Assembly: GCA_046563655.1 (NCBI GenBank)
Contig: CM102285.1
Coordinates: 7,936,001-8,000,000 of the forward strand
Length of the DNA stretch: 64,000 nt
Direction of reading: 5' to 3'
Source of the DNA: Yuukianura sp. NJ FZ-2021
Lineage: Eukaryota
A program made the translations under genes and the position numbers. Below the pieces are notes generated by a model. The model was given only the letters and a program-made list of their open reading frames with translations, was not told the DNA's origin and did not search any database. Below, piece after piece: positions 11,173 through 56,492 of the stretch (positions are counted from its first letter, which is position 1; every line of letters begins with the position of its first letter).

Positions 11173-11190
11173 ATTTTTGCCACTTTCAAC

Positions 11191-12387: not shown

Positions 12388-12574
12388 GTTTAACTGTTCC
12401 TCAGATTTAATAAGTTAGCACTTACAAAGATTATGAGGTAAGATTTTGATTGGGGAGAGGTCAATTCAAGTGATTGCAATTACCGTACCCAAAAAAACCG
12501 TGATTACCGTGAATCTTCTGTGTAGCTGTGCCTTCTTCCGTTGACTGATTGATTGGTTAACTAGCCACGCCAAA

Positions 12575-23400: not shown

Positions 23401-23854
23401 GGGAATTCACGTGTGACACTTGAAAACACAATTTAACATGTAAAAACAACTTTTAACTCCACACGAAGTGAGAAAAGTAAGTTTGATTTGACCTTTGTCT
23501 TTTTCGAATTTTTTTTGAGATAGTCAACTTTCAATAGCTATAGGGAGTACAATTGTTGACAGTCGGTGGCAGTCGGATGGGCTTTTGAACATCATGTCCT
23601 ATAGAATGGTTTGGTATTGTGATCTTTCATGAAAGTCTTAAATCTTTACAAACATTCCTTATGATAGAAAGTTACTATACCCGTAATGTAATTTTCAAAG
23701 TTCCCCGTCCCCTCCTGAACCCAAACATTTATGAATCATCTTGCCCTTTTCCACAAAAATGCCTTCGCATATGACCATTGTCTTAGGCATAAAACGAAAC
23801 TAAAACAGGAACATTAGTTTTGGCGTCGCAACCCCTATAACATAAACCAATGTG
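20492..23854 (-). mobile_element. Complete Transib DNA transposon, 3363 bp
   Basis: Imperfect 39-bp TIRs beginning CACATTGGTTTATG, GC-rich 5-bp TSD CGGCG (20487-20491 and 23855-23859), and a RAG1-core-like transposase. Confidence 0.96.
20856..23208 (-). CDS. Transib (RAG1-like) transposase, 4 exons
   Basis: GRP..F..KS.RSK motif, WGFDGSSG (D), IDGK (D), CPIC, SPLHAWIR, GSTNDGNTARR, WYPMPSSVHK/ILIHG and EEASE (E). Introns at about 22873-22941, 21476-21546 and 21247-21311. Confidence 0.92.
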
Positions 23855-38980: not shown

Positions 38981-38997
38981 AATATTTCTTAACTAAA

Positions 38998-39344
38998 TGT
39001 GGGGACTTTCTCCTCGTGACCTCCACATGTCAACATGGCTCAAGAGAGACATCCTCTGTCTGCATCCCGGACGGCCTGGAACACTACACCTCAATCTGAC
39101 CTCGGCATCTCCACCTCTAATAACGTCTCTCGCTCTCTCTCTCCCAAATAGGCAACACACTCTTTATTCACACTCTCAATACCCTGAGCTCTAGAAGGAA
39201 CCTCAGCTGCACGTAAGCCTGTTCCTCGGGTAGAGATCCTCTCACGAGGACCTCTACTCGAGTACTCTCCCTCTCACTCCTCTCATCCTCCTCTTCTCTA
39301 CCTCTATCATAGTGAGGACTCCTACCCCCATAAGAGGCCTCACA
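38998..39344 (-). repeat. 3' LTR of element B (347 bp)
   Basis: TGTGGGG...CCTCACA ends, purine-rich GAACAGGGGGTGTG on the minus strand at 39345-39358, and AATAAA on the minus strand near 39163. Confidence 0.9.
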
Positions 39345-39618
39345 CACACCCCCTGTTCAGCTGAGAATCCTGCACGATACTCTTTACACATCTAAAATGT
39401 TAGGGTTAATGATGTTAGATGGATTGCCAAAAAAAAAAGTTTTGTTCGTTAAGTTTTGTATTTTTGTATTGGATTTTCGTAATGCATTCTAAAAGTAACT
39501 ACATTTATGTATAAGACCATGAAAGGTCTAACTAGGGAAATATCTCCCGACTACACAATGATAAATGCTAGATGATCAATCAACTACAAGTAAGAGTTAA
39601 TGTGTTAAGGCGTGGCTA

Positions 39619-40647
39619 TTAGACGATGGTGGAGTTGACACAACGGCCGACTTGGATCCCCAGAAGGGACATATGAGTTTCCGCTTGACCTCGGTGCAAA
39701 ATCTCGTCAAATTCGTTGGTAAGGGGAAGAAAGTCTGACGTTCCGATGAGGGTGGAAGAAGTCCGATTAGTAGTCCAGACTAAACGGACGTAACTCAAAC
39801 GTCTGCCACAAACTGGTTCGGTGAACATTGATGAGATGAAGAGAGCCAGAGATGGGCAGCGAATAAACGTTTCCCCTAACAAACAGGTTTGATTATTATA
39901 AATTTTGTGATCGCATGGGAGTTCCTTATCAAAAATCCTGTATTTCGGTCCCCATACAATTGTAGAATCGATCATGTCGCAAACCTCAGCGTCAACTGTA
40001 CACGGCATTAATGTGCGCATGTGCGTGACTAAAATGTTCCTTGCTTGCGTAACGACAAACTCACGAACAGTCAGATAGTAATTGACGACTTCACTGGTGA
40101 TGGTGGTGGGCCATTTGTACCATGTCACAGGCGTACGGGAGGTACCGTAGGTAGAGGTGTTGAGCTGTAAAAGAGGTGTTCCCTGTGGATCCCGGTAGGT
40201 CATTGCCAACATTTGACATTCCCGTGGAGTCATGTGTTCCAAGCGTCTAGTCTCAAAAGGGTAATAAATACCGAAAAAGTAAAGTGTTTTGGATTGAAAA
40301 GTTACTTCCCGTTGACATTCCAATGCTTGGTATGGGCGCCGGAGATCTTCAACGGTGTGAATATCCATAGTAACGAGTGCTTCTGGTTTGGTTGAGGAAC
40401 TAAGCGAGCACGTAGTTGGCGCATCCCGTAGGGTATACAAAAGTCCTAAGGTCCAATGTGATCGTTGTTCCTCTACCATGAAGGGATACTTGTCCATCGA
40501 GAGTTGTTCGGACGCTTGTCCCTGAACTTTCTTAAGGGTCACATTGGATGGAGAAACAGCCGTAATTTGAAGCAATTGAGCATCAGTCCATTGGGCAGAC
40601 GTTGCCACTACGGTGAAAGTTAGTATCGTTAGTACCGAAAGCATCAT
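39619..40647 (-). CDS. Env paralog 4: predicted secreted, anchorless homolog of the Env N-terminal half
   Basis: Signal peptide MMLSVLTILTFTVVATSA. LECQREV..YFFG, TPRECQM, YKWPTT..EVVNYY, TIVW and IRCPSL align by eye with Env. No TM helix. Confidence 0.85.
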   Translation of the reverse strand: MMLSVLTILTFTVVATSAQWTDAQLLQITAVSPSNVTLKKVQGQASEQLSMDKYPFMVEEQRSHWTLGLLYTLRDAPTTCSLSSSTKPEALVTMDIHTVEDLRRPYQALECQREVTFQSKTLYFFGIYYPFETRRLEHMTPRECQMLAMTYRDPQGTPLLQLNTSTYGTSRTPVTWYKWPTTITSEVVNYYLTVREFVVTQARNILVTHMRTLMPCTVDAEVCDMIDSTIVWGPKYRIFDKELPCDHKIYNNQTCLLGETFIRCPSLALFISSMFTEPVCGRRLSYVRLVWTTNRTSSTLIGTSDFLPLTNEFDEILHRGQAETHMSLLGIQVGRCVNSTIV

Positions 40648-40743
40648 GTTGTCACTGCAAAGACGAAAAAACATGAAATTAGTAAAACCCAATCCACACA
40701 TTATAATAAGGACTACTGAAGCTTATTCGTTAATGCCTTAAAC

Positions 40744-41985
40744 CTATTTCCTAGGATAAAGCCCTTCATCCACCCGCCTGGCGGTGTTATTTTGCATTAA
40801 ACTAGTTACATCAAACGTTTCGACATCGTCAGAATCATCCCACTCTGTAGGTCGCTTCTTAGGAGTATTTGTTGCCGGATCCGCGTTATCTATGTAAAAT
40901 GCTGTATAGTTAGCCAAATTGAGAATAGTTTGGACTCTATTCGTTATTTGTCGTGTAAAAGGATGTACCGTTCTTTGTCCTGTAAGTTCACAGGAACCAA
41001 TATGCAAGATTTTAAGAAAACTTGCTTTACCCCACTTAATACTGTGAAAAAGATGTTGGAAATTCATTTCGATGTGAAACGTTTGCTTTGTGTTAATCGT
41101 ATTGGTCTCCACCTCCTCCAAACCTTCCTCCGTCTCAATGATACTGCGGGAAACGCCCAGTGATGTCCCACATTCCTCAACAGAAGAATTATAGTAGTCC
41201 GTAATACTAATAGCCAAATCTGGACACACTAACTGAAGTGGATTCAAAAAACAGTTGGACGCCACCCGTTTCTTCAGAGAGCATGTAGTATTTTGGAGTC
41301 CAGGGAAACGCCATACGAGTAAACCACGTTGAGTCCAACATGAAGAAGCTTTGAAGGCACAAGGCTCTTCTAGATCTGGCAATTGTGTAGCGCGGATATA
41401 TCCCGAATAAGGGTCATGCTGAATGGTTACTAAGGAGATGTAATAATTAATAATGCGCACTCCCCACGGCTCAGATCGTCCAAATTGCGTATCGTTCGAA
41501 ATAAGATAGTTTCGCGTGGCGATCGTAGTTTCGTTAATGATGGACATTGGATATCCGTCCGGGTCAGTTCGAGTCAAGTGCATATGAATACACTTGCTAG
41601 GCGTAAGTGCCTTAGGAAACATGGTAACATTAGTAGTGAAAGTCTTAGCGTGCTGTGGATTATGGTACAATTCCTTCACTTCTAAGGCACAATGATATCC
41701 TTGCGTATAAAGACTTGGCGCGATTCCACTCCAAAGGGCTACTGAAATCATCGCCGAATCTTTAAGGTCATAAGGACAACTTTCGGGTCGAGTTCGTAGC
41801 ATCCCCAACGTCCATACCCGAGTAAGATTAGAAGGAGGTAGCAAGTCCGGTGTTTCAAGTTGTGTCAATTTAGTAAGGCGTGCCATTTGGTCAAATTCGG
41901 TAGTAATGGTTCGCAATTCCGCTAGTCCCGGAAGAACATGGTGGGTGAAAAAGACGAAAGTCATAGTCAGAGGAGACAGAAGCAT
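40744..41985 (-). CDS. Env paralog 3: predicted secreted, anchorless
   Basis: Hydrophobic N-terminus. GYHC, TPSKCIHM, DPDG, IINYY, C....SSC, LLVW, LVCPDL, CGTSLGVS and NFQHLF align with Env. No TM helix. Confidence 0.85.
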   Translation of the reverse strand: MLLSPLTMTFVFFTHHVLPGLAELRTITTEFDQMARLTKLTQLETPDLLPPSNLTRVWTLGMLRTRPESCPYDLKDSAMISVALWSGIAPSLYTQGYHCALEVKELYHNPQHAKTFTTNVTMFPKALTPSKCIHMHLTRTDPDGYPMSIINETTIATRNYLISNDTQFGRSEPWGVRIINYYISLVTIQHDPYSGYIRATQLPDLEEPCAFKASSCWTQRGLLVWRFPGLQNTTCSLKKRVASNCFLNPLQLVCPDLAISITDYYNSSVEECGTSLGVSRSIIETEEGLEEVETNTINTKQTFHIEMNFQHLFHSIKWGKASFLKILHIGSCELTGQRTVHPFTRQITNRVQTILNLANYTAFYIDNADPATNTPKKRPTEWDDSDDVETFDVTSLMQNNTARRVDEGLYPRK

Positions 41986-42035
41986 TATTGAGCTGTAAAG
42001 AAACACAAAGGTAAAGAACTTTGACGTGAGTCCCA

Positions 42036-43124
42036 CTAACATCCCCCCAACTGTTTCACTTGAAGAAAAGTGTTAGTAGTTTCTTTTAACTGTGACACTA
42101 ACGTGTGAAATTCTGAGTCAACCAAAAACTGGGTAGAATTAGAGTAGGTTACTAAAGATTCTGGAGTCGTAGTTATTTTCACTAATTTCTGTTCCGTCAA
42201 CTGTGTGTCTACTTGATGCGGCAAAATGTAACGTCGGGAGTGAGGACAATAGATCATGGTGGGTGAAACAAAACACATAAAATCAGTATATGCTGTATAT
42301 TGACATAGGTGACCATTCGGAGGATCCAGTTCCTTCTGTAAAAGAAATCCATTTAACAGAGTACACACTGGTTGCCCAAAGTAACAGGAGTTGTCCGTTA
42401 GATACAAGTCCGTATTAACAATTTTTTGAGAAACAGGGTCCACATTGAGATTAAGTTTTTGCACATGATAGTCCACAAACATATTATCCTCACTGGGTAA
42501 AAAACGGGAGTTCAGATACGGATTTTTGTCTTGATAAGTAGTGCGGCGCTGGGGGTCTAACCATGTGGATGAAATGGCCCACTTAGAGTGAGGTACCGGT
42601 AAGTTAAAATATCCAAAAAATGTAGAAAACGGTGAAATTGGAGTTAGTAGGCGGCCGTGAGGATCCATTTTGTGTAATATCATCTGATAACAATCTTCCA
42701 GAGTGAAATTTTGATTAAGATAAACTCGACCATAATCATAATGAAACGTTGAGGATGCTCCTATCCGTGTCGAAGCATATTTGTGGATGGATGATCTGGT
42801 ACTTGTACATGCATAGGCCTCACGTGGGTTGCCATGAGTTCCTTTTAACTGAAACTCCACAGATACCAAAAGTGTTTCTTCCATTTTCACTACCTGAGGA
42901 TGACGATGTGGACTTAAGTACCCGATCACCCACCGATGAGAAGAAGGAAGTGGTCTCACAAACCTACTGTCACTATTCCACATAGCGCGGTCACCGTCAT
43001 TAGACACAGTCGCTTTGGTAAATGTATTGAGATTGGTAGGCACAGGAGGAGAAGGTCTCAAACTCATCGAGTGAGAGACTGTTGAAAATGAAAGTAGTAT
43101 TGCGAGAGTAATTTGCCACTCCAT
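42036..43124 (-). CDS. Env paralog 2: predicted secreted, anchorless, most divergent
   Basis: Signal peptide MEWQITLAILLSFSTVSHS. AYAC, TLEDCYQM, DPHG, VDYH, C.....VC and IYCP keep the Cys spacing of the other paralogs. Confidence 0.78.
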   Translation of the reverse strand: MEWQITLAILLSFSTVSHSMSLRPSPPVPTNLNTFTKATVSNDGDRAMWNSDSRFVRPLPSSHRWVIGYLSPHRHPQVVKMEETLLVSVEFQLKGTHGNPREAYACTSTRSSIHKYASTRIGASSTFHYDYGRVYLNQNFTLEDCYQMILHKMDPHGRLLTPISPFSTFFGYFNLPVPHSKWAISSTWLDPQRRTTYQDKNPYLNSRFLPSEDNMFVDYHVQKLNLNVDPVSQKIVNTDLYLTDNSCYFGQPVCTLLNGFLLQKELDPPNGHLCQYTAYTDFMCFVSPTMIYCPHSRRYILPHQVDTQLTEQKLVKITTTPESLVTYSNSTQFLVDSEFHTLVSQLKETTNTFLQVKQLGGC

Positions 43125-43204
43125 AGTCAGTAAAAGAGTACCAATTTTGAAAAGTCGTAACAAGATTTTGTTGTTTTTAGAGATTGTAACGTATCAAGAG
43201 GATG

Positions 43205-45733
43205 TTATGCTGGACGCGGGATGCCACTCCAAATGAAACCGTCCCCTTGAATGTACGGCTCGGTGAAGACTGAAGAGGGTGCCGTCGGTACCAATTGGTA
43301 TGAAGGGACACGAGTTTCCACAGAGGCCCTTAAAGGCATAACGGTGGGCGGAGCGTATCTCGGAAGGTTCGTAGAAGGTTGAAGTTCGGAAGTAAGTAAA
43401 GGAGGTTGCGAAGGTAACGTGCTCGGTCGTTCGATTAAAGGAAGCATTGTCATGTCATGTCTATTCATTGGCGGTTCAAGTAATGGCGCTTGCTGTGTGC
43501 GGTGAAATATGCGTGCCACACCCGGTAAGCGTTGGTATAAGGGCCGCCAAAATTTCAACAAAAGGACAAAGATGACCACTAGAACTGCTATTGTGAGGAG
43601 TCCAGCCAAAAATTTAAGGGTAAATTCTTTAATGGGGTCGATTGCCCAACCTCGAATAACATTCCGAACTTCCAACTGTTCCGCTGTCAACGGTTTTCCT
43701 TTAATTTTTGAACGAATTATATTGTCAATCGCTTTAGGTGCCTGAACTTGACGAAAGATGGCCATAACTGAATCAGAAGTTGTGATGTGTTTAAGAGCAA
43801 TTGACCCTGGACTATTAAAACTGATTTCAGCCATAGGTTGATTAGGGATTGAATTTTGGATTGGCAACGGAATAGTCGGCAAACGGACTTTAATGGTAGA
43901 AACATTGTTTAATAAAATACTCGTGTCATCGTCAATGTTGAAATAGAACGGTGGAACTTCATCACAAGGAGCCAATTCAGGTTCCAACACAATTTGATGG
44001 GACAACGCATTCATGTAGCCTTGCATCTTCTGGTGTTGGTACATGAAAACCACAGGCATATTTCGAGTACAATTGTCTCGTGATGGTTGAACAAAATGGT
44101 AAGAGTCAATTTGAGTACATGCTTTAAGTGATAATGCATCTCCGGATAAAGTAGCTAAATACCGATGATCACGTAACAACATTCTTGTGATGACATTCGG
44201 AATTTTATTTTCAGTAAGATAAGTACTGATATCCAAAAGTTGCCGTTGATTAAGGCATACTTGTTGCACCAAATTCTGAATCGCATAAGTGACATTCGCT
44301 CGAACCATATCATGCAAATACTGAAACTTTGCATTTGTCTCCGCGGCTGACATAAGTGTTGCTTGCGTTGGGAAAGTGCGTTGTCTACCTTGTGTAAGTT
44401 GACGAAAAACGTCTTCTTCGCGACCTTGGTAGAGTATCTGCGTATTTTGTTTTCGCTGGTCATTAACGTTAGATGACGAACCCGCAATGGATTCTTTCTC
44501 CCGAACGGAGAACGTTGGCCTCTCGGTGACAGAAGTTGAAAGAGGTTGGATTAAAATAGGTGTAGGCAGACGCATTGGTAAATGTGTTAAATTAGGATGA
44601 TTTGGCGGAGTGTCAATCGGAATTGGGTCATGACCTAAAGTCTGTTCCGCCTCCGTGACCCATGTTGGTGGTTGTTCCGTGGAAGTTTCAACCGAGGTCG
44701 TTATAGGAACCCGTTCTTTCGATACTTCCACAATCCCTTGGAAACCTGGCGCTTTAGGCCTGTTTTGTATTTGTTGTAACAAAGTCTCATCATCCGTTTC
44801 AATCAAATGACGCTTTTGTTTTCTCCCCCCGACACTCGATTTCAGACGGGTTAGAGCTTCGAACGTTGAGGTGGTATCCACGGAAAACGGAAAGATGTTT
44901 TCACGCTCTGGAGTAAACATCACCCCTTGAGTGCTAATCCCCATTTTGTATCCACACAAATCGATTTCATGTACCCCCGAAATACTATAGGATAATTCAG
45001 GACAGGATAGTTGAACATCATTGGTTAACAAGCATTGAGTCGTGGCAGAAGGTTGAAGACGACAAGTTTGAAATAAAGTATGTGTCCAAATCAAAACTGA
45101 TTCACCCGTACTAGGACAAGAATTATCCGTAGCTGGGCAGTTTGCCGTCAATGGAATAGGTGCCATTACCGTTTGATCCAAATTGTTTGCGGAAATCGTA
45201 ATTGCTGAATAATAGTAGTTGGTCACCTCTCTCTCAATTGTTTTAGGCCAAACATAATCTATTTCGACTTTTTCCGTAGTACCCCAAGTATTGTCCAGTA
45301 ATAACGTCATTTGTTTTTTATTTGGAGCCAATTGTTCCTCGACCATTCGCCTACACTCTTCTGCTGATACTTTTACTGGCGTTTCTTGAGACGATCTCGA
45401 ATGACTTCCCCAAAAGAAGAATGAGCGAACCTCCGAATTGCGAACAGCGCGACAATGAAATCCTTTTATAGCATCCATATTGGGGTTCTCAGCCCAAATG
45501 GTAAGGGTAACGACTTTGGTTTCCGTTCGTAATTCCTCTATTTCACAGGAAGGCATCGTTGGTAACCGATACAGTAACGCCCTGCTGGTTTCATCACAAT
45601 ACCAGAGGTGCGGCATTTTTGGTTTTAAGGATCCAAAATACAAACGATAGAGATTCAATTCCTCGAGAGTAGGTTGTGCCGTTGTCATCATGACCAAAAG
45701 AAAAGAGATGGCAAAGACAAATCCAGACGCCAT
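43205..45733 (-). CDS. env: Envelope glycoprotein, class III fusion protein-like (herpes gB/rhabdovirus G/chuvirus-like)
   Basis: Signal peptide, GFHC..FFFWG..VSAEEC segment, basic site RKQKR, long helix NAKFQYL...QVC, gB-like GDALSLKAC..C...PV motif, TM helix FLAGLLTIAVLVVIFVLLL and a Pro-rich tail. Confidence 0.85.
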   Translation of the reverse strand: MASGFVFAISFLLVMMTTAQPTLEELNLYRLYFGSLKPKMPHLWYCDETSRALLYRLPTMPSCEIEELRTETKVVTLTIWAENPNMDAIKGFHCRAVRNSEVRSFFFWGSHSRSSQETPVKVSAEECRRMVEEQLAPNKKQMTLLLDNTWGTTEKVEIDYVWPKTIEREVTNYYYSAITISANNLDQTVMAPIPLTANCPATDNSCPSTGESVLIWTHTLFQTCRLQPSATTQCLLTNDVQLSCPELSYSISGVHEIDLCGYKMGISTQGVMFTPERENIFPFSVDTTSTFEALTRLKSSVGGRKQKRHLIETDDETLLQQIQNRPKAPGFQGIVEVSKERVPITTSVETSTEQPPTWVTEAEQTLGHDPIPIDTPPNHPNLTHLPMRLPTPILIQPLSTSVTERPTFSVREKESIAGSSSNVNDQRKQNTQILYQGREEDVFRQLTQGRQRTFPTQATLMSAAETNAKFQYLHDMVRANVTYAIQNLVQQVCLNQRQLLDISTYLTENKIPNVITRMLLRDHRYLATLSGDALSLKACTQIDSYHFVQPSRDNCTRNMPVVFMYQHQKMQGYMNALSHQIVLEPELAPCDEVPPFYFNIDDDTSILLNNVSTIKVRLPTIPLPIQNSIPNQPMAEISFNSPGSIALKHITTSDSVMAIFRQVQAPKAIDNIIRSKIKGKPLTAEQLEVRNVIRGWAIDPIKEFTLKFLAGLLTIAVLVVIFVLLLKFWRPLYQRLPGVARIFHRTQQAPLLEPPMNRHDMTMLPLIERPSTLPSQPPLLTSELQPSTNLPRYAPPTVMPLRASVETRVPSYQLVPTAPSSVFTEPYIQGDGFIWSGIPRPA

Positions 45734-45845
45734 GGAGACAATAGGATTGAAGTAACTTCTAAAATAAGCATGCACTAAAGTAAGCAAGTGAAGACTAATA
45801 CCTCATCGAACCTTAGGTTCTGTAGCGACCGAAAAGGACGAAGAC

Positions 45846-48800
45846 TTATCCCCATTCATACTCATCCAGCCAGCGAGGGGGTTTGCGCGAGCGTGCTGAG
45901 CGTGTGGGGACTTCATTGGAAGGGATAGGGAAAGGACCGGCGTCATCAGCCTCAGCCTCCTCCCCCTCCCGAATGGGAGAATCCATCGTCGGAGTCTGGG
46001 GTTCGTGCCCCTGAGATTCCCGAGTGAAAGTTGGCAGATCTTTCTCTACTGCCAAACCATGTTTTTCAGCCCAAATGGAGAGTAACTCGCGATGTTGGCG
46101 TAGAAACTGGAAAACCCGTGGCTTATCCGTACTTCGCTGTATTACCGCCACCAGCACGCCAAAGATGGACACATATATTTTCGTATGTAGCGAGATGAGC
46201 AAAATCAAGAATATAAGAAATTCTTCCCAATGGTCTCCGAGAATCGCCAAGGAATGCGTGAGGAGTTGATTTTTAAAGAGCAGCATATTGTCCGTCAAAG
46301 ATTCGGACTCAACAAAATGGACCCATAAACCAGAAGGTTCAAGAATTTGAGCGTTACTTTGACATACTGGTGTCAGTTTGCCCGTAAAGCCTGGTGATTC
46401 ATCGATCAGAATAACATCAGTTAGGGAAAATTCCTGACAAGTGTGGAGGATTCGTTCAACGGAGCTGTCTTTACCGAGAATTATGGCTTTAATTACATAA
46501 ATTTGCAGCAAAGTATTAACGTTATTTAAAATCTGTGTGTTCCATGCCACTGTAGACTGCAAAAAATCCAAAATCAAATCATAATGATGAATCTCGTCAA
46601 GAAAAGTCTCCTCACTAACTAGTATATCCGCAAACTCGACATCAGGTGCACTCCGCTCATCAATCAATCGCATGCGCTTCGTTTGTGTAAGGAATTTACG
46701 ATTAGAAGTCAAACATTCAACCCGATACGTTGTGGGATTGATCTGTTCGAGGACTCTATATTCGCCATAATAATACGGAGTCCACTTTTTTGGAAACCCT
46801 TCAGTAGTCTTTCGAGGATACGTAAGTCTAACTTTAGAACCAATTTCATACGAGACCGTACTACTATACTTCTCCGCTTTGCGTTGCTGAAGAAGTTGTT
46901 GATGGGCAATCGCTTGTCGTACATCTCCCCATAGCTGCTGAATCGTCTTTTGTTTTTTAGACATCTCACTAGTGAGTACTTGAGTATGAAAAGTGTATGG
47001 TAACCGTGGCTGAAAGCCCATAAGAACCGAGAAAGGACATTGAAATTTCAAAAGTTTCAACGGAGCCGTATTAATACAAAACATGAGGGTAGGGATGTAT
47101 TGCACCCAATCTGTTCCATGATCATTAACAAAACTACGAATAATGGTGTGAAAAGTTGAATTGCTTCTTTCCGAAATCGCGTTGCCTGTTTTGGAATAAT
47201 AACAAACAAATCGAATCCTGGTACCAAAAAGTTTACTATGAGATTTAAGAAAAGTAGAGATGTAGCCTGGACCATTGTCACAGATTATAATTTTGGGTGA
47301 CGAAAACTTAAGAAAAACTTCCTTTTCCAGAAAATGAGCAATATCTTGTCCCGTCGTTGTTTTAAGCGGAACTATGATTTGGTACTTTGAGAGTAGACAC
47401 ACGGCGTTAATAATATATTTATAACCGTTACTTTCTTTAAATGGACCACATATATCGGTACTAATGATTTCCATTGGATGACTCGGAATTGGAAGTGACC
47501 CCATGGTGGCCGAAGCCTTTCCGTAATGGCGCTTCATACGGCCACATATTTCGCAATTCAAAACAAAAAGTGCTACGTCTTTCTTCATGGATGGCCACGC
47601 AAAGTGTCGAAACATTCGATAATAAGTTTTAGTAAAACCCATATGACCACTTAGTGGAGATTCATGTGCCTCTGCCAGTATAGTATTACGTAAGACCTTA
47701 GGAACAAAAATACGCGATATACCCATTTTCATGTCGTATAAAATATCGTTCTTAAGGATATATCGTGCTTTAAATTTAGGATCAGGCGTATTCAGACTTA
47801 GCCTTATTCGAATAGCTTCTTCGTCTGCCATCTGAAGCTGTTTCCAATCCAAATCGTCCTCCTGTCTACGCCACCCATCCTCTCGTTTATCATAATTTTT
47901 ATCAAAGAGAATTGTCATGATGGAAGACGAATTATACTGCTGTAATTCAACATCGTCATGAAACTCTTGATGTAAAGGGGTCCTGCTCAAATAATCCGGC
48001 AATTCCATAGTTTCACCTGTTTTGTATTTGATGACAAAATTAAAGTCTAATAAATAAGTAGCCCAAAGAATGATCTGCCTACTAACACGTTTGCATGGAG
48101 CGAGAAATTCTTTAATTTGGGAAATTGGTTCATTGTCTGTGAATACTGTGAACTTTATGCCGAGAAGATAAATGTGGAAGACTTTACACGCTATAGTAAT
48201 AGCAAGCAGTTCCCTCATGTACGCCGGCATGTTTCTTTGTGCTTTGGTTAGAGTACCTGAGTGGTAGGCACATGGCACTTCGACATCTTTGTCCACTAAT
48301 TGCATCAAACAACAACCAATCCCGTACGCACTAGCATCCGTATATACTCTCGTTTCCCGAGAGGATTGGAACCAGTGTAATAGCGGTGGAGATGTTAGCA
48401 AACTGCGTAACTGATCAATAATAGCAAAATGTTGGTTTTCCAAGACAAATTTTTGATCTTTTTCTAATAATTTGTATAGTGGTTGGCAAATAATAGACAA
48501 ATCGGGAATACTACGGCGAAACCAGTTAACTGCCCCTAGAAAGCGCATTAATTCTTTAGGTGAAACAGGGTAAGGAATATTCCTGACGGCTTCTAATTTT
48601 GTCGGATCTTGTTGAATACCCTCTCTACTAATGTACATCCCTAAAAGCTTAATTTGTGTGTAGCCAAAGTGACTCTTATGGACTGAAAGCTTAACTCCAT
48701 ATTCACGTAGTCGAATAAACGTCTTACGTAAATGTTCCAGATGGTCCGCGAATGAATTAGAGCCAAAACACAAATCATCCAAGTAAATTGCGACAGATTC

Positions 48801-50396
48801 GTACAGGATAGAACCAAGACATAAATGCAAAGATCTCACAAAACTCGCGGGCGCATCGCGAAGGCCAAACGGTAAAATTTTATATTGAAAATTTCCAAAA
48901 TATGTCGTAAATGCTGTATACTTCCGAGAATCTGGATGTAAAGGGACATTATGATATCCTTTACTGATGTCCGCGACACTCAGAAATTGATGTCTTGTTC
49001 TTAGCCATTCCAAAATTGTCTCTACCCCAATTAAAGAGAATTCAACAGGTTCACATTGCGCATTTATGTCCCCATAATCAACACACATCCTATAAGTTTT
49101 CGTTCCATCACCTGTTGTTATACCGTTTTTAACCATGACGGTGCGAGATAGAAAATTGGAGTTGCTTGGTTCAATCTTATCTAGTTTTAATAACTCCTGG
49201 ATGGTTGCATTTTCAGCATCCATAGCTTCTTTATTCCGCCGAACCGGTTGATGGCGAAACGGTTTAGCATTTGGCTTTAAAACGATGTGATGAACATAAT
49301 CTTTGATAACACCGATCTCACCCTTATAAGAAAAAACATCATTATACTGTCGTAATAGTAAACGCAATTGATCTTGCTGTTCAGGATCCAACTCGGGATT
49401 AATACGAGCATACAATGAGTGTAAGTGATTCTCGTAGTCACCCTGAGTGAGTCCCTTAAAATTGTATTCCTCCCATGGTTCGCGAAAAGTAACTTTCTTT
49501 GAACCATTTCCTGCAACACCGTGTGGTTCCTTGTCCGTCGGCTGAGTATCTGCCAATCGTGGAGAATTTGGAACAGTAGGAGAAGAATCTACATCGTTAT
49601 GACCAAGCTTCGTCTCCTGATCCAACATCGGAAAAACTGACTTGTAAGAAATGTGATCTGCATCGGATTGACCAGACACGATCGCCTGTCCCTCCTGCTT
49701 GTAAGAAGTGTGACCTGCGTCTGCGTGACCAGGCACTATCGCCTGTACACGAGCGGAAAACTTCTCTGGTAAACACGTACTATTCATCTCAACTCTGGTT
49801 CCCTCATCATCTGTAGTATTTTGTGACTTATCATTAAATATGGTGGAACTAAGGTGCTGAGTCCTTTCATGCATGGAAACAGCATCTTTTTCCTGGTCCC
49901 CGGCCGAGGAAACTATATCTAAAACTGTAGTGTCTACTGAATAAATTCTCTGGTTTGCAGAATGGTTCAACTCGGGAAACTCTATCCCTCCGACATCATC
50001 CGTAGGAACCACAGGGAAAGTTGTATTACCAATAGTGACAGCCTGAGTGGCTAGATCAATTTTGACTTTATGTTTACGTAAGAAATCCATACCCAAAAGT
50101 ACCCGGGGAGGACAATTATCCACCACTAACAACTCATGATCTGCCTGAAAACCTGGAAGATGAATAGAGACTTGGATTTTACCCGCCGGAACTATTTTAG
50201 TTGCACCGATTCCCGTGAGTGTAACACTATGGCTGAGTTTGTTAAGTCTCGTAGTGTCCACTAAAGAAGAATCGATTAAGGATGCCTGAGCACCCGTATC
50301 TAATAAGATGAGCGTTGAGTAATTATTAATTGTCCCATTAATTTTGAGTAATTCAGTACCTGTAATATGAAAAACACACTGTTGTTGAGAGTTCAT
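45846..50396 (-). CDS. pol: Pol polyprotein (PR-RT-RH-IN plus C-terminal extension), 1516 aa
   Basis: Motifs LLDTGA, RMCVDY, LPFGL, YLDD, YTDAS, HHCC (HESPLSGH...CEIC), STDICGP, CDNG and SERSN. The frame is uninterrupted and overlaps the gag stop (ATGA). Confidence 0.97.
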   Translation of the reverse strand: MNSQQQCVFHITGTELLKINGTINNYSTLILLDTGAQASLIDSSLVDTTRLNKLSHSVTLTGIGATKIVPAGKIQVSIHLPGFQADHELLVVDNCPPRVLLGMDFLRKHKVKIDLATQAVTIGNTTFPVVPTDDVGGIEFPELNHSANQRIYSVDTTVLDIVSSAGDQEKDAVSMHERTQHLSSTIFNDKSQNTTDDEGTRVEMNSTCLPEKFSARVQAIVPGHADAGHTSYKQEGQAIVSGQSDADHISYKSVFPMLDQETKLGHNDVDSSPTVPNSPRLADTQPTDKEPHGVAGNGSKKVTFREPWEEYNFKGLTQGDYENHLHSLYARINPELDPEQQDQLRLLLRQYNDVFSYKGEIGVIKDYVHHIVLKPNAKPFRHQPVRRNKEAMDAENATIQELLKLDKIEPSNSNFLSRTVMVKNGITTGDGTKTYRMCVDYGDINAQCEPVEFSLIGVETILEWLRTRHQFLSVADISKGYHNVPLHPDSRKYTAFTTYFGNFQYKILPFGLRDAPASFVRSLHLCLGSILYESVAIYLDDLCFGSNSFADHLEHLRKTFIRLREYGVKLSVHKSHFGYTQIKLLGMYISREGIQQDPTKLEAVRNIPYPVSPKELMRFLGAVNWFRRSIPDLSIICQPLYKLLEKDQKFVLENQHFAIIDQLRSLLTSPPLLHWFQSSRETRVYTDASAYGIGCCLMQLVDKDVEVPCAYHSGTLTKAQRNMPAYMRELLAITIACKVFHIYLLGIKFTVFTDNEPISQIKEFLAPCKRVSRQIILWATYLLDFNFVIKYKTGETMELPDYLSRTPLHQEFHDDVELQQYNSSSIMTILFDKNYDKREDGWRRQEDDLDWKQLQMADEEAIRIRLSLNTPDPKFKARYILKNDILYDMKMGISRIFVPKVLRNTILAEAHESPLSGHMGFTKTYYRMFRHFAWPSMKKDVALFVLNCEICGRMKRHYGKASATMGSLPIPSHPMEIISTDICGPFKESNGYKYIINAVCLLSKYQIIVPLKTTTGQDIAHFLEKEVFLKFSSPKIIICDNGPGYISTFLKSHSKLFGTRIRFVCYYSKTGNAISERSNSTFHTIIRSFVNDHGTDWVQYIPTLMFCINTAPLKLLKFQCPFSVLMGFQPRLPYTFHTQVLTSEMSKKQKTIQQLWGDVRQAIAHQQLLQQRKAEKYSSTVSYEIGSKVRLTYPRKTTEGFPKKWTPYYYGEYRVLEQINPTTYRVECLTSNRKFLTQTKRMRLIDERSAPDVEFADILVSEETFLDEIHHYDLILDFLQSTVAWNTQILNNVNTLLQIYVIKAIILGKDSSVERILHTCQEFSLTDVILIDESPGFTGKLTPVCQSNAQILEPSGLWVHFVESESLTDNMLLFKNQLLTHSLAILGDHWEEFLIFLILLISLHTKIYVSIFGVLVAVIQRSTDKPRVFQFLRQHRELLSIWAEKHGLAVEKDLPTFTRESQGHEPQTPTMDSPIREGEEAEADDAGPFPIPSNEVPTRSARSRKPPRWLDEYEWG

Positions 50397-51658
50397 GGAT
50401 GTGCCCTGTTGAGTGAGTTGATCAAGGGGTTCACTGGATTCCCCGGACGGCCCCCTTCCGTCGCCTCGGGTTGTGCGTTTTTTAAATACTTACAGTTTTC
50501 TGTACTGTGTGTAGTACTATTATGATGTGTGCAAAATTGCTGTTTTTTGCGTGGACGTTGAGCTGCTGTAGGCTGCATACGACAAGCTTCCGTAGAATGG
50601 GTATCGGTGCGATGCGTTGTGCAATAAGTGTCCTCTAAACAATTTGAAGCTAGGTGACCCGGTCTAGCACAACGGAAACAGGTCAAAGTGCTACATTTAG
50701 ATGCAATATGCCCCGGCTGTCCACAGCGATAGCATCGCATGGGACCTTGACCCCTACGTTGCGTTCCACCAGCCTGAGAGTTCTGTGTGAACATCTGAGA
50801 ACCCTGATACAAGTTTGGGTCTCGAACTAGTGAAGTATCCTGTATGAATTGCTGCAAATTAGGATATAACGCTGGAGGTTGTGTCGCTGCCGCGTTGACA
50901 AAAGTAACTGTGTCGGTATTACTCGCCCTAGTCACATTTGCCATTGCTTGTTCCAAAGCAAACACATCTCTCTGATGTGTCAACATGGATGTAGCCTCCT
51001 GTATCGTCTTACCAATTGTAATAAACTGGTCTATTGTTTGCGGATTGAGCAGTGCCATCTGCTGTAAGTACGAAGGCCGCAGATTCCGAATCAAGTATTT
51101 CAACTTACGAGATTCGCTAAGTGTCGGATCCAGTTGTTGTAAAATGTTCAATAAGTCGTACGTATACGACTCAATTGACTCATCCACCCGTTGCTTACGG
51201 TTTTGCGCTTTATCCTCCGTAGCAATTGAATCCACAGCTCCAAAGATTTTAAGGAAAGCTGCTCGTAATTGGTCAAAACCTACTACCGCCGTTTGTTGCG
51301 GACTTTGGAGCCGTAATTGCTCCAGGTAATTGATGAACCAATCTTCCGCAACCTTTTCCAAGGAAGCGGGTAAAAATAAACCCCAATTCGCTTTGGGTAA
51401 ACGGTTCGCCATTGCCGCGATCTCCCATTTGACAAGGAATCGATAGGCACATTCGTCTTTTCCTCCCGCAAATTTAGGAAAAGGCACGGTGACCCTTTGT
51501 GACGCTGCCAAGCCTCGCGGCTGTAAGGCTCCTTGAACTCTTGCCGCTGAGGCAGTCATAGCCGGAGCTGGGATAAGTGTGGGAAGAGGAGGTGCAGGTG
51601 GAGGTGTAGCTGGATTTAAGTTAACTATATCCTCTAAGTCATCCAAATCATTCATCAT
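50393..51658 (-). CDS. gag: Gag, 421 aa, with two CCHC knuckles and two C-x2-H-x4-H-x4-C motifs
   Basis: Motifs FPKFAG, L...A..WF, RKQRVDESI, CYRCGQPGHIASKC, CFRCARPGHLASNC, CTTHRTDTHSTEAC and CTHHNSTTHSTENC. Confidence 0.95.
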   Translation of the reverse strand: MMNDLDDLEDIVNLNPATPPPAPPLPTLIPAPAMTASAARVQGALQPRGLAASQRVTVPFPKFAGGKDECAYRFLVKWEIAAMANRLPKANWGLFLPASLEKVAEDWFINYLEQLRLQSPQQTAVVGFDQLRAAFLKIFGAVDSIATEDKAQNRKQRVDESIESYTYDLLNILQQLDPTLSESRKLKYLIRNLRPSYLQQMALLNPQTIDQFITIGKTIQEATSMLTHQRDVFALEQAMANVTRASNTDTVTFVNAAATQPPALYPNLQQFIQDTSLVRDPNLYQGSQMFTQNSQAGGTQRRGQGPMRCYRCGQPGHIASKCSTLTCFRCARPGHLASNCLEDTYCTTHRTDTHSTEACRMQPTAAQRPRKKQQFCTHHNSTTHSTENCKYLKNAQPEATEGGRPGNPVNPLINSLNRAHP

Positions 51659-53346
51659 GTTCTGTATGTGTAATTTGTACCCTCAATCACCAAATGAACG
51701 AGGTATTATTAAAGAAAAATATTGGTGTTTGTTCAATAAAAGTGAAAAATGATTACTCACGTTTGATGTTAAAAGAAATCCAATTAACAATGATTCAAGC
51801 CGCCGCCGTAGTCGTGGTGCGTCCACAAAAGATAGTTCAATAAGGAGAGTTATTGTCTTAAACAATCAACGAATGTCGTAGGTAGTAAAAATGAAAAGAC
51901 TTGTAATTGTTCTTTAACTTTAGTACAATGGATAAAGTAAAAATGTCTGATCCAACTCCGTCCACTGTCAGACGCGTACTCCCCCGGATGCCTTCTACTA
52001 CTTCCCTTAATATTCCTTTGTACTGTGTATGCAAAAAGGGAACACGCACGAGGCAAGGCCAAAAAGCGTAACGCAATGGCGTCTAAAGGCAATGACCGAT
52101 GAACTACTCCACGTGCCAACTTGTGTGGAAAATGAAAGTGTATTGAGTCCAATTTGGTTGTTTGTGTGTTGCTGCTCCATTTCCAATGGTATAGGAGTGA
52201 ACTCCGCCCTTACTGGGAAGGATGTTGTAACCACACCCATACCGGTGAACATATTCAACTAACTCCTCCCATACCGTTGGAGCTGGTTAAGACTAGTGTT
52301 GTTTTAGTATGTTTAAAAATAAACCTCGTCCAGGCCCAAGATGTCGAAAAATCATCCACACCCAAAGAGATGAAAAGTCATCCACACCATATATGGCAAC
52401 CATGGAGCGGATGGTTTACATGGTGTGATGTATCCATGATCCTCAACGTAATCTCCACACTATTGTCTTTCGCTTATACTATTCCAAATGCATCTACCCC
52501 TTGGACTACCAACGCATATGCGTAATGTAGTGCAGGGACAGTACGCACTTTTCGCCCGGCGGATCAGTCTCCATCGTCCTAAAGGGGTGCAGTTGCAGCT
52601 GATACTTTCTCTCTTAACACCAATTTATAGTAAAAATAAGTGCAAAAAGAAACTAAATACTAATCGTGATATATGCTTGTGTCAGTTTTAATTGAAGACT
52701 CTCGTTTGCCAAAACCCGTACATCATAGTAGATGGTATCCAGGGATAATCACAGTGAAAGTGAACGGACATTCTAGTGATGTAATCTGCCCTATGCCATG
52801 CTGTAAAGGAAGTGTCCTTTATGTAAGTACAACAAACTGAGTTTGTCGCATTAAAGCATGAATTAAAAGCAATGTGATTCGTACTTTTAAACTACTATTC
52901 GCAGTAGATGTGTTAGATAAGCGTGAAACTACGTACTCAAAATTGTTTATTAAAAAAATAGCAACGCTGTGCCCCTCAGACCAAAGCATGAAGATACCGT
53001 GTGTTAGACGAAAATCTGTACTTCATCAGTGTAATCAATTGACTCATTACTAAACCATGAGGGTATTTCTAGGCTCATTTCGCTTTGAATAACGTACCGA
53101 GATTAAGAACTGGAAAGGTTTACAAAAAATCGTTTTATTCGTGTTTTGCAAATATGATATTACTGATCGAAAAAAAATGATTTAAAACGGTATCCTTTCC
53201 TTCTATCACACCGTATAAAAAATGCTAATTTATAATTTGATTTTGTTTTCTTTATTTGATAGTTCTCACGTCAACACCTAACCGCATTTTTTCACTATTG
53301 ATTGTAAAACGTTCAAATCCTATCGAAGGTGGAAGAAGATAGCAAC

Positions 53347-56122
53347 ATGGAAAACTCTGCTAATGGTAACGAAAGTGAACATGAACTCGAAAATACTGTA
53401 TTAACAACCCCACGCGACTTGTTTATGGGACATTGCAGTTTCCTCCCCAATGCATCTAACAATACTAACGGTAATTCAATCAATGAAATGGAGGCTAACT
53501 CGAATGGAGACGGTTTTACCGATTTAATTATAGTTTTGTCCCCTGTTCCTCATTATGAAGATCTAACCCCAGATCCTGAACCGTTACAATCACCAACTGC
53601 TTACGAAATGGCCACGGAGTGTGAAATGCCTATGATCCCAACGAATCCAACTTTGGCTGACGTTCAAGACCCCGCTGTCCACTCTCCGCCTACCGAAACT
53701 GCCGATGTTGTACCCGCTGGAGACGCTGGAGTGAGAATCATGAACCCTACGCCATCTACCTCCCGATTAATCGTGGATAGTTTAAAATCAAAAAACCAAA
53801 ACCGTAGCACTCCCAAACCCTCTCCAAAACGCAAACGAGCCAACAAACGAGCTTCTGGAATCCGGTCTCCTCACTGTGTCGTATCGGACCCCGATGACGT
53901 ACTCCCCTCGTCAAGCGTATCCACTCGGGATCCGACTCCTCGTAGTTGCAAAACGACCAACCGACGTTACTACCATATTTATACCAGTTCGGAAGATGAT
54001 CCTGAAAGTGAGCCCGAAGTCCTCTCCTCGCCAAGATCGTCCCGTGCCGGGTCTCCGAATCCTTCCCTGGATGATTTTCCCTCTACTCCAAATGCTGGTT
54101 ATCAGACCGCCTTGTCTTATTTACAGCTGACTATTGCGAATGTTCTGAAAATGTGGCATCATGACCAATACAAAGCCAAACGAGGCAAAACTCGATGGGA
54201 ATTCACAGACGACGTCCGAAATTGTCGAGCCGAGGGGTTAACTGTGGAGCTCGGGCACACTTTCTTCAAGGGTCTGAAAGAGACGTTTAAACCTAGAACC
54301 TGGAAAGTTGTTGTATGTAATGAACACTTTTTATGAACAAGAATGGTAAGAATCTAATGTCCCTAACCGATGTCAACCCTTAGTTACAGGATCCCCAAGT
54401 GGTGTCCTTCTTTAAAGCCAGCTTAGAGTCTCTGGATGAGAAAAGTTACTTTTTGAATATGCTCTGCCATTGGATAATTGAGCTGTTCCCTGGAACCACA
54501 GCGAGACGCAATCGAACCGACATTATTGATTGTTTTAATGTAAGTTGTTAACGAGTAGTGATTAGAACATGCCGTCTAACATTCTTTGTGTTATTTGTGT
54601 ATTCCAGTGGATCCTTAGGTATGACCTCGTGACCCAAGTCGAGCTGGCGGAATGGTGTTTTCGTGCTATTTCGCAAAATTTACAATTAGGAACCGGCCGT
54701 AACCGTTTTCATGATGCCGAATTTGATTACATCTTTGTGCTAGGACCAATCTATCCTATGTTGACTCGAATTGTGACTACCGAGGTAAAAGCAAATATCC
54801 TTATGTTGAGCATATTCAATTGATAAATCTCCAACTTGCAGGGAATGACGGATCCGCTCGCGCAATTTGTGGATCTTCAAATTACCAGTTGTAAGCAGGG
54901 AATGGCCGCAGGTAATGCCGTTATGTCCCCCGCCACTGAGAGCCTGATTGAGTATGCGGAAGATCCCCGTGTGAAGCAAATCGTAAGTTCAATACCCTTC
55001 CCTCACACGTGCTCCCCTAATAGAGACAACCATTTCTGTGTTCTATTTTTAGTTGCTTTCTGGGCGAGGTTTGTTTGACATAAAATGCGAAATTCTAAAT
55101 CCCAATTCGTCTTGTCGTTTCTTTTTTGTCACTGGGTATTTTATGATTTTTTATATTATTTGATTTGCTTTTTTCACCATGTTTTTATCGTTACTGACTG
55201 CGATTCATAATCATAGGGGCTGGATCTTAAAGTGTAAAGACATGGACCACACCGACGCCATCGCTAAGTTTGAGAAATCCCTTGAGGAAGGTGGTGAGGG
55301 GTATATTCGGACGCGGTGGACTGACGGTCAAGGGAACCCGGATACTCTAAGACTGCCCAAATGTGAAACAAGTAAGATCAGACTGTTATTCGAAAAACCA
55401 AAGTCGTGTTCAAAATGCTAACCTCTCAAACTATGTAATTTAAGGATTTTTCCCCCAAGATCTACTAACTTCCCCGACAATCGAGACAGGGCGTTACTAT
55501 TGTGGAATATGCCAGGCCGAGCTGCATGATCAGAAGATACTAGATCCAAAACTAATCAAAACCCTTGTAAAATACACGAGTGAGGAATTCCTAGCCCATG
55601 TTCATGCGCACAACCCTATTGACCGCATCGATCAACGTTGCGGCTGTTACCGCTCCCTTTGGGTGTCTGCGAGAGATGTCCATGCTCGGAGTTGTTCGTC
55701 TTGCGTATGTTATCAACACGGTTTTAGTGTAAGTGACTATCTTCTACTATGAACCTACACCCTTCAAAACTAACGAAAATCTGCCTTATGAATTATAGGT
55801 TCGTTCCAAGGCTTTCCATTTGACTTCCGAGCGAGAACGAAAACAAAAACATGCCGGCTGTAACTTTTGCAACCTCTGTGGGCGTAACATGAAGAGTATT
55901 GAAGAGTTAGAAAATCATACGTTACACAAATGTAAAGCTTGTCGCCATTGCGAGTTATCTTTTTCTTCTATTGGTGAAAGTCGTGAGGATCATAAGACCA
56001 AATGTTTCCGCTGCTATTGTGGTAATGTATATGAGACCCCAGATGCTTGTCGTTTGTGTATCGTAACTTGTTTAAAACGAAACATTTACCTTACTCCCGA
56101 TGATGTAAATCGAAAACGTTGA
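53347..56122 (+). CDS. Antisense 8-exon accessory gene of element B (~761 aa; disordered N-terminus with basic NLS-like patch, Cys/His-rich C-terminus)
   Basis: Exons 53347-54312, 54384-54539, 54608-54784, 54842-54982, 55053-55135, 55217-55371, 55445-55728 and 55799-56122 join via GT-AG introns into a 2286-nt open frame. A homolog lies at 19954-26366. Confidence 0.85.
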
Positions 56123-56192
56123 GTTTGTAAATAAATTTTGTCGTGTGTGTACTTACGTGTTGTCTTCGTTCCAACTTTACCATCAAAAAGGG

Positions 56193-56212
56193 ATCCGGTT
56201 CGAATAGGACCA
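56193..56212 (-). promoter_or_regulatory. Primer-binding site of element B, tRNA-Tyr-like
   Basis: TGGTCCTATTCGAACCGGAT lies 4 nt inside the LTR and resembles the complement of the tRNA-Tyr 3' end (TGGTCCTTCGAGCCGGAT). Confidence 0.8.
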
Positions 56213-56216
56213 GATA

Positions 56217-56492
56217 TGTGGGGACTTTCTCCTCGTGACCTCCACATGTCAACATGGCTCAAGAGAGACATCCTCTTTCTGCATCCCGGACGGCCTGGAA
56301 CACTACACCTCAATCTGACCTCGGCATCTCCACCTCTAATAACGTCTCTCGCTCTCTCTCTCCCAAATAGGCAACACACTCTTTATTCACACTCTCAATA
56401 CCCTGAGCTCTAGAAGGAACCTCAGCTGCACGTAAGCCTGTTCCTCGGGTAGAGATCCTCTCACGAGGACCTCTACTCGAGTACTCTCCCTC
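56217..56492 (-). repeat. 5' LTR of element B, lacking its outer ~71 bp
   Basis: Matches 38998-39273, then switches abruptly to host exon sequence at 56493. Confidence 0.93.

Follow-up and report, generated by a model that had tools for sequence, protein, structure and literature searches.

The window analysed here, 64,000 nucleotides of Yuukianura sp. NJ FZ-2021 (GenBank assembly GCA_046563655.1, contig CM102285.1, positions 7,936,001 to 8,000,000 of the forward strand, numbered below from its first letter), carries on its minus strand a 17,496-bp element flanked by long terminal repeats (LTRs) at 38997-56492. Read along the minus strand, the element consists of a 5' LTR (56216-56492, 277 nt, with an AATAAA near 56388-56383), 3 nt, a 22-mer beginning with TGG that resembles a primer-binding site (PBS; 56191-56212), a 4.5-kb leader, gag, pol, an envelope gene (env) followed by three related open reading frames (ORFs), a purine-rich polypurine tract (39274-39306) directly upstream of the 3' LTR, and the 3' LTR itself (38997-39273, 277 nt). 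Exactly seven ORFs of at least 120 aa (ATG starts, standard code) overlap 38500-57000, of which six are minus-strand and one is plus-strand, and every one is uninterrupted; at a stop frequency of 3/64, the chance expectation for a 329-codon ORF in 17.5 kb of 42% G+C is approximately 0.005. A preliminary description of this DNA had proposed a young, fully open and complex endogenous retrovirus, about 3.5 times the size of the other LTR element in the window, and its account of openness (7 of 7 ORFs), organization (more genes than gag-pol-env) and size (17,496 against 5,046 bp) is confirmed. We present evidence that the element is probably an intact, recently inserted, Ty3/gypsy-type (Metaviridae) retrovirus-like element of the group whose env resembles herpesvirus glycoprotein B (gB), and that it possesses a complex, ambisense genome.

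A repeat search over 37000-58500 revealed a single long direct-repeat family, 277 nt in length, with copies 17,219 nt apart. The two LTRs differ at one site (39058 G versus 56277 T on the plus strand; 99.64% identity over 277 nt by blastn), as had been stated previously, and because they differ at only 1 of 277 positions the insertion is recent, which bears out the claim of youth. The PBS-like 22-mer is identical in a diverged copy elsewhere in the window (copy B, below); its complement could not be parsed as the 3' end of a tRNA and, by eye, did not match the sole tRNA gene of the window, nor does the string match any PBS in the supplement of a recent survey of related elements (PMC13524379). 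Between 38900 and 56600, Rfam at gathering scores returned no matches, and a tandem-repeat search likewise returned none. Each LTR contains a hairpin (56444-56481 and 39225-39262); the first 50 nt fold at -28.1 kcal/mol (z -4.35, equalled by 0 of 200 shuffles), the LTR hairpin of copy B at 19591-19628 folds at -31.5 kcal/mol (z -7.10, 0 of 200 shuffles), and between the two diverged copies at least one G-C pair of the stem has changed to A-U on both sides, as judged by eye.

The gag gene (50393-51658, minus strand) encodes a predicted protein of 421 aa with a Ty3-type capsid (Pfam Ty3_capsid), two zf-CCHC knuckles and an LYPNL motif. The pol gene (45846-50489, minus strand; 1516 aa from the ATG at 50396, the frame being open from 50489) lies in the -1 frame and is open 97 nt into gag; where this overlap begins, the gag frame contains the slippery sequence UUUAAAAAAC (50477-50486, minus strand), the candidate site of a -1 frameshift. 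Pfam places the protease at residues 19-107, RVT_1 at 432-588, RNase H at 657-785, Integrase_H2C2 at 898-956 and rve at 972-1065, and the catalytic strings DTG, YLDD, HHCC and D,D,E are found in the predicted protein. An extension of about 250 aa past the integrase (residues ~1235-1516; window 45846-46690) is kept in three related metagenomic loci (L001, L003 and L004, below); it has no Pfam match, and contains a hydrophobic segment near 1393-1420 and a basic end (R..R..P.W.DY). The linker between protease and reverse transcriptase (RT) contains, at 49641-49746, a 49-nt imperfect tandem duplication (84% identity) that yields a repeated QAIV.G..DA.H.SYK peptide. Compared with solved structures, pol is closest to Ty3 (7q5b, 1e-76; 4ol8, 4e-56), followed at a distance by foamy virus (4e-26) and murine leukaemia virus-type (1e-19) enzymes, and a caulimovirus polyprotein ranks above the retroviral enzymes; the affinity of RT and integrase is read from this ranking only and not from a GyDB-based phylogeny. 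By its predicted pol, the element is a member of the Metaviridae (Ty3/gypsy) and not of the Retroviridae, so that the label of endogenous retrovirus, in its taxonomic sense, is not upheld.

The env gene (43205-45733, minus strand) encodes a predicted protein of 842 aa comprising a signal peptide (residues 1-20), a fusion-domain half, a multibasic RKQKR (304-308), a variable linker, a central helix from about residue 467, a transmembrane (TM) segment (701-734) and a tail bearing YQLV and PTAP. Pfam matches it to Monjiviricetes_fusion (2.9e-13, residues 466-714) and Glycoprotein_B (8.4e-5), and weakly to Rhabdo_glycop_FD (E 0.01, residues 89-142). A HMMER scan of 1.84 billion representatives retrieved 141 relatives at E<=1e-3, of which the best over the full length are 32-35% identical; a word-index homologue search with 3832 candidates found no relative of env, and of 68 env pattern matches in viral contigs none was confirmed. 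A profile built from 30 env relatives and compared with PDB retrieved 54 sequences at E<=1, led by human cytomegalovirus gB (7kdd, 5.7e-9) and including Epstein-Barr virus gB (4e-8), with rhabdovirus G chains scoring 0.003-0.008 over the fusion domain. The alignment to gB (profile positions ~290-457) sets in at the basic cleavage site and takes in the central helix, and the match to herpesvirus gB extends beyond; together with the Pfam match at residues 466-714, it indicates that the central-helix domain III and the crown domain IV are homologous to those of gB. By these comparisons the predicted Env groups with herpesvirus gB among the class III fusion proteins. The motifs FFFWG and YVWPK (FFxG, Y.WP), conserved in the fusion-domain half, would by their position and their likeness to gB and rhabdovirus G constitute the domain I fusion loops. 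Between two environmental copies of a related element that are 98.4% identical (L001 and L002), env shows 23 synonymous and 6 non-synonymous differences in 939 codons, a pattern suggesting that env has been under purifying selection in that lineage.

Env genes of the gB type are widespread on metazoan Ty3/gypsy elements, referred to in a wide sense as errantiviruses (Chary & Hayashi, eLife 2026, PMC13524379), and the element shares with them the gag-pol-env order, a Ty3/gypsy pol, and a gB-like env ectodomain with signal peptide and TM segment. The preliminary description had set the element apart from errantiviruses whose env is related to baculovirus F protein. Its env is indeed not of the baculovirus-F type, being gB-like by both Pfam and the PDB profile, but a different env alone does not establish a new lineage, because this combination has already been published (PMC13524379). 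Members of the collembolan 'C2' group of that survey (Fcan_1, Scur_5 and Yper_2) have domain I-II motifs in common with the env described here, recognized by eye and without formal alignment: xFFF/WG, Y.WPKT, NYY/F, IS.NN.D, CP....LIW, CRL, SCP.L and QG..FTP (PMC13524379). The nearest published env sequences therefore look collembolan as far as that survey extends, and the env relatives make an animal origin of the element most likely.

Downstream of env lie three shorter minus-strand ORFs, E2 (42036-43124, 362 aa), E3 (40744-42042, 432 aa, its start overlapping the E2 stop) and E4 (39619-40701, 360 aa). E2 has a signal-like N-terminal segment and no TM segment and has lost the fusion-loop motifs; E3 has lost them as well and bears an acidic C-terminal tail; in E4 both hydrophobic fusion-loop motifs are retained, and the protein stops at the conserved Cys located where the central helix begins. 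Aligned with Env, the three proteins match its first third at 13-25% identity, with 15 invariant columns among the four sequences, 7 of which are Cys. Comparison of a 26-row profile of short proteins with the env profile by hhalign gave a probability of 100 and an E value of 1.3e-73; the short proteins skip the variable linker of Env, and their C-terminal motif F..L....IQ...C falls on the first turns of its central helix. By these alignments, E2-E4 are env paralogues that span the signal peptide to the first central-helix turns and have neither the linker, the rest of the trimer core, the crown nor the membrane anchor. Four env-like ORFs had been described previously; all four are env-related, but only one is a full envelope gene, to the N-terminal part of which the remaining three are paralogous. 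The predicted products of E2-E4 possess hydrophobic N-termini, carry 2-8 N-glycosylation sequons and 8-12 cysteines each, and lack an anchor at the C terminus; six Cys columns are nearly invariant across the 26 short-protein sequences. The putative loops, at the positions of FFFWG and YVWPK in Env, differ by type. In alignment A4, the E4 row and the eight below it (9/9) keep aromatic-FF-G/F/P in loop 1 and W in loop 2, with WP in 6/9; six of these nine rows fall in the E4 clade of the tree described below, and P0075, P0126 and P0069 are absent from that tree. All three E3-type rows have hydrophilic residues at both motif sites, and E2 carries an insertion.

The same array is found in a distant relative. 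A scan of metagenome contigs with an 8-row env alignment (A5) returned five loci (L001-L005). In L002, the end of pol is followed by an env of 938 aa and then by ORFs of 344, 367 and 339 aa, whose best hits are E2, E3 and E4, in that order; the L002 env is approximately 33% identical to that of the element, and the short ORFs are 23-30% identical to E2-E4. Within 3745-8214 of this contig the gaps preceding the short paralogues are 200, 87 and 330 nt, versus 80, -7 and 42 nt in the window, and about 700 nt remain beyond the last of them before the contig ends. L001 is the 98.4%-identical copy of L002, cut within the E2-like ORF. BLASTP against the 141 env hits identified end-to-end relatives of E3 (P0095, 7e-53; P0131, 6e-39) and of E4 (P0118, 3e-40; P0090, P0061, P0057 and P0071), proteins of 337-362 aa and ~28-30% identity from short environmental contigs. 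A maximum-likelihood tree of 32 rows places the env N-domains in one clade (support 100/99), an E4 clade of seven rows (98/94) holds the element's E4 (WIN_E4), the third ORF of L002 and five short database proteins, and an E3 clade of four rows (98/95) holds the element's E3 (WIN_E3), the second ORF of L002, P0095 and P0131; E2 and E3 are joined at 97/95. Since each paralogue groups with its positional counterpart, the array is old and maintained. The gene order of L002, taken together with the tree, indicates that duplication took place before the separation of two lineages that share about one-third identity in Env, and that all three types have stayed open since.

Env would serve as the membrane fusogen. 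We tentatively propose that E2-E4 are secreted or particle-associated glycoproteins that aid Env at entry as receptor-binding or triggering partners, a proposal for which the case is close to evenly balanced. E4 would retain membrane-seeking loops that E2 and E3 are without. Herpesviruses encode entry partners beside gB (gH/gL, gD and gp42), and the element likewise encodes several glycoproteins beside its fusogen; the herpesvirus partners, however, are unrelated to gB, whereas the extra glycoproteins of the element are paralogues of the N-terminal half of the fusogen itself. Our hypothesis is that E2-E4 may bind or trigger Env as the herpesvirus partners do. A rather doubtful alternative is that E2-E4 are interference factors, secreted or endoplasmic reticulum-resident fusogen fragments that occupy the receptor or poison incoming Env and so guard a cell or germline that is already colonised against superinfection. 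In vertebrates, receptors are blocked by truncated env products, among them Refrex-1, suppressyn and Fv4, and the signal-like N-termini of E2-E4, their missing anchor, the absence of most of the trimer core and the loss of hydrophobic fusion loops in the E2- and E3-type proteins would all suit such a role. It is harder to reconcile with the membrane-seeking loops that E4-type proteins retain, and the long maintenance of three paralogue types in the element fits a division of labour in its own cycle better than a single blocking function.

The sole plus-strand ORF (53347-54336) had been described as an open antisense gene. It is open, but it represents only exon 1 of a predicted eight-exon gene that occupies 53347-56122 on the plus strand, within the leader, with exons at 53347-54312, 54384-54539, 54608-54784, 54842-54982, 55053-55135, 55217-55371, 55445-55728 and 55799-56122. 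The plus strand of the leader reads as a chain of ORFs in shifting frames; once seven GT..AG introns, each 57-81 nt long, are removed, the eight exons form an uninterrupted frame of 761 codons. The donors read GTAAGT, GTATGT or GTAAGA in five introns and GTAAAA and GTATTT in the other two, and an AATAAA lies at 56130, 8 nt past the stop. The first third of the predicted protein is rich in S, P, T and N and includes KRKRANKR, and its last 200 residues contain 19 Cys and 12 His with C2H2- and C2HC-like spacings.

Conservation of this gene can be assessed in copy B (19574-26378, plus strand), in which the LTR, the PBS-like string and the antisense-gene region recur in diverged, decayed form and inverted with respect to the element. 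Alignment of the two by tblastx produced 10 collinear plus-strand blocks of 41-86% amino-acid identity, stop-free in 10/10 cases in the element and in 9/10 in copy B. Across 486 codons of these blocks, mismatches number 146, 134 and 291 at codon positions 1, 2 and 3 (chi-square p 3.8e-18), a figure tempered by the choice of the blocks through tblastx, that is, by protein similarity, which somewhat favours third-position differences. At the homologous splice sites, copy B has AG in 7/7 cases and a clear GT in 6/7, and the intron sequences are unalignable and differ in length. Diverged contigs covering 55204-55442 lend weak support: among the differences listed, seven fall in predicted introns and two in exons, both of the latter at third positions. 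The comparison with copy B shows the predicted exon blocks, reading frames and splice sites to be kept between two independently inserted copies. The flanks of the element and of copy B share no similarity, indicating separate insertions, and the antisense gene has therefore travelled with the element.

The gene would be transcribed towards the 5' LTR from the 1.7-kb spacer that separates its start from that of gag (51659-53346), which holds no conserved ORF and may contain one or more internal promoters, and its transcript would be spliced and polyadenylated just past the stop. Its introns presumably survive retrotransposition because the genomic RNA that is reverse-transcribed is the opposite strand. 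Its product could be a nuclear, Cys/His-rich regulatory protein, though we consider this assignment speculative. On the sense strand, the leader (51659-56215, 4.5 kb) contains 62 ATGs and no ORF above 81 aa. The only xxGTAAGT consensus on the sense strand of the element, a candidate major splice donor (56151-56156, minus strand), lies about 35 nt beyond the PBS-like string, and the corresponding region of copy B contains GTAAGA; an ACAG stands 3 nt before the gag AUG, and pyrimidine-rich AG sites precede env, E3 and E4. This sole GTAAGT, together with the AG sites before gag, env, E3 and E4, suggests that the leader may be spliced from the mRNAs and kept only in the genomic RNA. It is conceivable, and a little less than evenly balanced, that the leader is removed from the gag-pol mRNA in this way, from the donor at 56156 to the AG just before the gag AUG.

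It could be argued that the antisense gene is no more than a passenger that was caught in the leader, whether from the host or from some other mobile element, and is of no service to the element. Its spliceosomal introns are those of a cellular gene, it has no similarity to the viral or transposon families searched, it has decayed in copy B, and published relatives of ~9.6-9.7 kb have no room for it (PMC13524379). We nonetheless regard this as improbable: the two insertions are independent and share ~60-76% identity in their LTRs and coding blocks, the gene occupies the same PBS-adjacent place in both, third-position bias and splice sites have been retained across that divergence, and a useless 4.5-kb load in the leader would be expected to be lost. 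No host copy of the gene came to light, with no genome among the sequences searched.

A still less probable view, to which we give very little weight, is that E2-E4 are functionless, decaying tandem duplicates of env that are open only through the youth of this copy. Their low identity to env (13-25%) and the few database relatives of E2 (4 hits) are in keeping with this. However, the same three types are open and in the same order in L002 at 23-30% identity, their separate clades contain further full-length short proteins from other sources, and the six Cys columns are near-invariant over 26 sequences.

Contiguity was checked over 38000-57500 with contigs from three DNA runs (X1-X3) of one sample and one study. 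An X1 contig of 9,854 nt matches 40792-50645 (E3 through pol) without a difference, and an X3 contig with ~7% divergence bridges gag and exon 1 of the antisense gene (50551-54077). The E4 region (39323-40484) and the stretch from gag through the leader to the LTR (50551-56250) are covered by contigs that differ by 2-8%, and for 40792-50645 the pieces listed show no difference from the window; diverged relatives may share mainly the ends of the element. Other contigs join 38939 or 38942 directly to 56493, and these joints at 56492/56493 make the right end of the element exact. Several contigs run from the left flank past 38992-38997 into other sequence, and the flanks at 38943-38996 and 56493-56530 both hold CTGGAATAT-type motifs and belong to a repeated family. 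One X2 contig of 522 nt joins 49679-50057 (protease region) to 42662-42796 (E2), going back 7396 nt; it may derive from a rearranged copy or a circle-type junction, or be an artefact of the contig. That assembly has fused two or more elements with LTR-like ends in common into one 17.5-kb unit is the least probable alternative, and a nearly negligible one: no listed contig spans the whole stretch, the X2 contig leads from 50057 back to 42662 and no target-site duplication was found, but the exact 9.85-kb contig runs from E3 through pol, a diverged contig connects gag and the antisense gene, the flank-to-flank joints stop exactly at 56492/56493, the junction of LTR, PBS and antisense gene is seen independently in copy B, and the succession of pol, env and E2 onwards is present in both L001 and L002.

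The window is rich in further transposons. A second Ty3/gypsy element, complete at 5,046 bp (7742-12787), has identical 214-nt LTRs (7742-7955 and 12574-12787) and ORFs for pol and protease, and Ty3/gypsy fragments at 2680-7379 include an RT-RNase H that is 34% identical to pol of the 17.5-kb element. A gag fragment at 17946-18208 (minus strand), 50-74% identical to gag residues 54-146, adjoins copy B in the opposite orientation and is a third remnant of the family in this transposon-rich stretch. The insertion within copy B, at about 20484-23856, contains a 445-codon stop-to-stop frame (21535-22872, minus strand) with no Pfam match.

Several observations weigh against the element being an intact, complex member of the gB-env group. 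Only one full copy was seen, its LTR reads GAGGG...CACA(T) rather than having TG..CA ends, and by eye the flanks (..CTAA / LTR; LTR / GATGC..) share no repeat of 4-6 nt that could be a target-site duplication, although repetitive flanks may conceal one. The left joint lies 54-57 nt outside the LTR in repeated flanking sequence, and the contigs therefore do not represent a clean empty site but perhaps a paralogous one. The 96 nt past the slippery site fold no better than shuffled sequences (z +1.16; 180 of 200 as good), providing no frameshift stimulator. Pfam gave nothing above noise for E2, E3 or E4, including the loop-bearing E4, and the short-paralogue profile alone matched nothing in PDB below E 0.43. 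The array is seen in one relative only, L002 with its near-identical partial copy L001, since L003, L004 and L005 end too early, and the two E2 rows of the tree pair on long branches with a support of only 86/78. The antisense ORF and seven leader ORF pieces gave nothing above noise in Pfam, word-index homologue searches with antisense exon 1 (1229 candidates) and, against longer proteins, with exon 8 (9 candidates) yielded no relative, and none of 10 pattern matches to exon 8 in viral contigs was confirmed. All splice sites, the promoters and the leader intron are predictions, and copy B is dead: stops interrupt block 3 and the homologue of exon 1, and 3.4 kb of inserted sequence splits exon 7. 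Finally, the collembolan relatives measure ~9.6-9.7 kb, from which it follows that the extra genes are not general to the group (PMC13524379). The reading of an intact, recently inserted element with a complex ambisense genome remains, in our view, the probable one.

The comparison of sizes also locates what appears to be new. Between LTR ends, subtracted from the published coordinates, Fcan_1 is ~9.7 kb and Scur_5 ~9.6 kb in length, about the size of the present element minus its leader gene and E2-E4, which account for the ~8 kb by which it is longer (PMC13524379). That survey annotated three ORFs only and dropped candidate regions over 10 kb, and its text and seven supplementary files contain no mention of antisense genes, extra ORFs or env paralogues (PMC13524379). 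Judged mostly by titles and abstracts, with subscription journals outside the scope, no published env-paralogue array or intron-bearing antisense gene was found for an animal LTR element. The base plan is thus known, and what appears to be new is the E2-E4 array and the intron-bearing antisense gene, together ~8 kb of extra sequence.

Parallels to these features exist in other systems. HTLV-1 (human T-cell leukaemia virus type 1), a complex retrovirus, has in HBZ a spliced accessory gene that is read from the minus strand, and the element similarly carries accessory genes beyond gag-pol-env, one of them spliced and on the other strand. The two differ in that the element has a Metaviridae-like pol and no sequence similarity to HTLV-1, and in that HBZ starts in the 3' LTR whereas the antisense gene of the element starts internally and runs towards the 5' LTR. 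Additional antisense ORFs are known from LTR retrotransposons of plants and fungi, namely maize Grande gene23, rice RIRE2, Silene Retand, Phaseolus PvRetro13 and Botrytis Boty brtn, and share with the present gene conservation antisense to gag-pol, unknown origin, a suspected nuclear or regulatory role and a promoter of their own (PMC7264820). Those ORFs lie between pol and the 3' LTR, whereas the gene described here lies between the PBS and gag (53347-56122); it has seven predicted introns, a word absent from the text of that review, and the likeness is drawn from the published descriptions (PMC7264820). Fusion glycoproteins of a kind known from unrelated viruses are also borne by other LTR retroelements, such as the hookworm Atlas virus with its phlebovirus-like Gc, a class II fusogen (PMC9094657), and mosquito BEL/Pao elements with a chuvirus glycoprotein (PMC7642597); these belong to other retroelement groups, and their abstracts report no paralogue array or antisense gene.

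The element may be infectious. Taken as a whole, a fuller picture can be drawn, which we offer as speculation: an arthropod-type Metaviridae lineage would have acquired a herpesvirus-like, multi-glycoprotein entry machine through a triplicated and specialised N-terminal half of its fusogen, and an ambisense genome whose leader encodes a spliced antisense zinc-finger regulator, with introns protected by lying opposite the genomic RNA. The leader would be spliced out of the gag-pol message, such that genome RNA and gag mRNA would be different molecules.

Ty3/gypsy elements carrying env form an old and widespread bridge between retrotransposons and viruses and have so far been described as simple three-gene units. 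The element described here suggests that some have attained, by a route of their own, a gene complexity equal to that of 'complex' retroviruses: part of the fusogen gave rise to three long-lived accessory glycoproteins, and a regulator-like gene is carried on the opposite strand. Pipelines that keep only gag, pol and env, or that discard long candidates, would miss such genes. The element may thus provide a natural system for studying how a class III fusogen can be split into modules, how accessory glycoproteins originate, and how an intron-bearing gene can ride in a retroelement.

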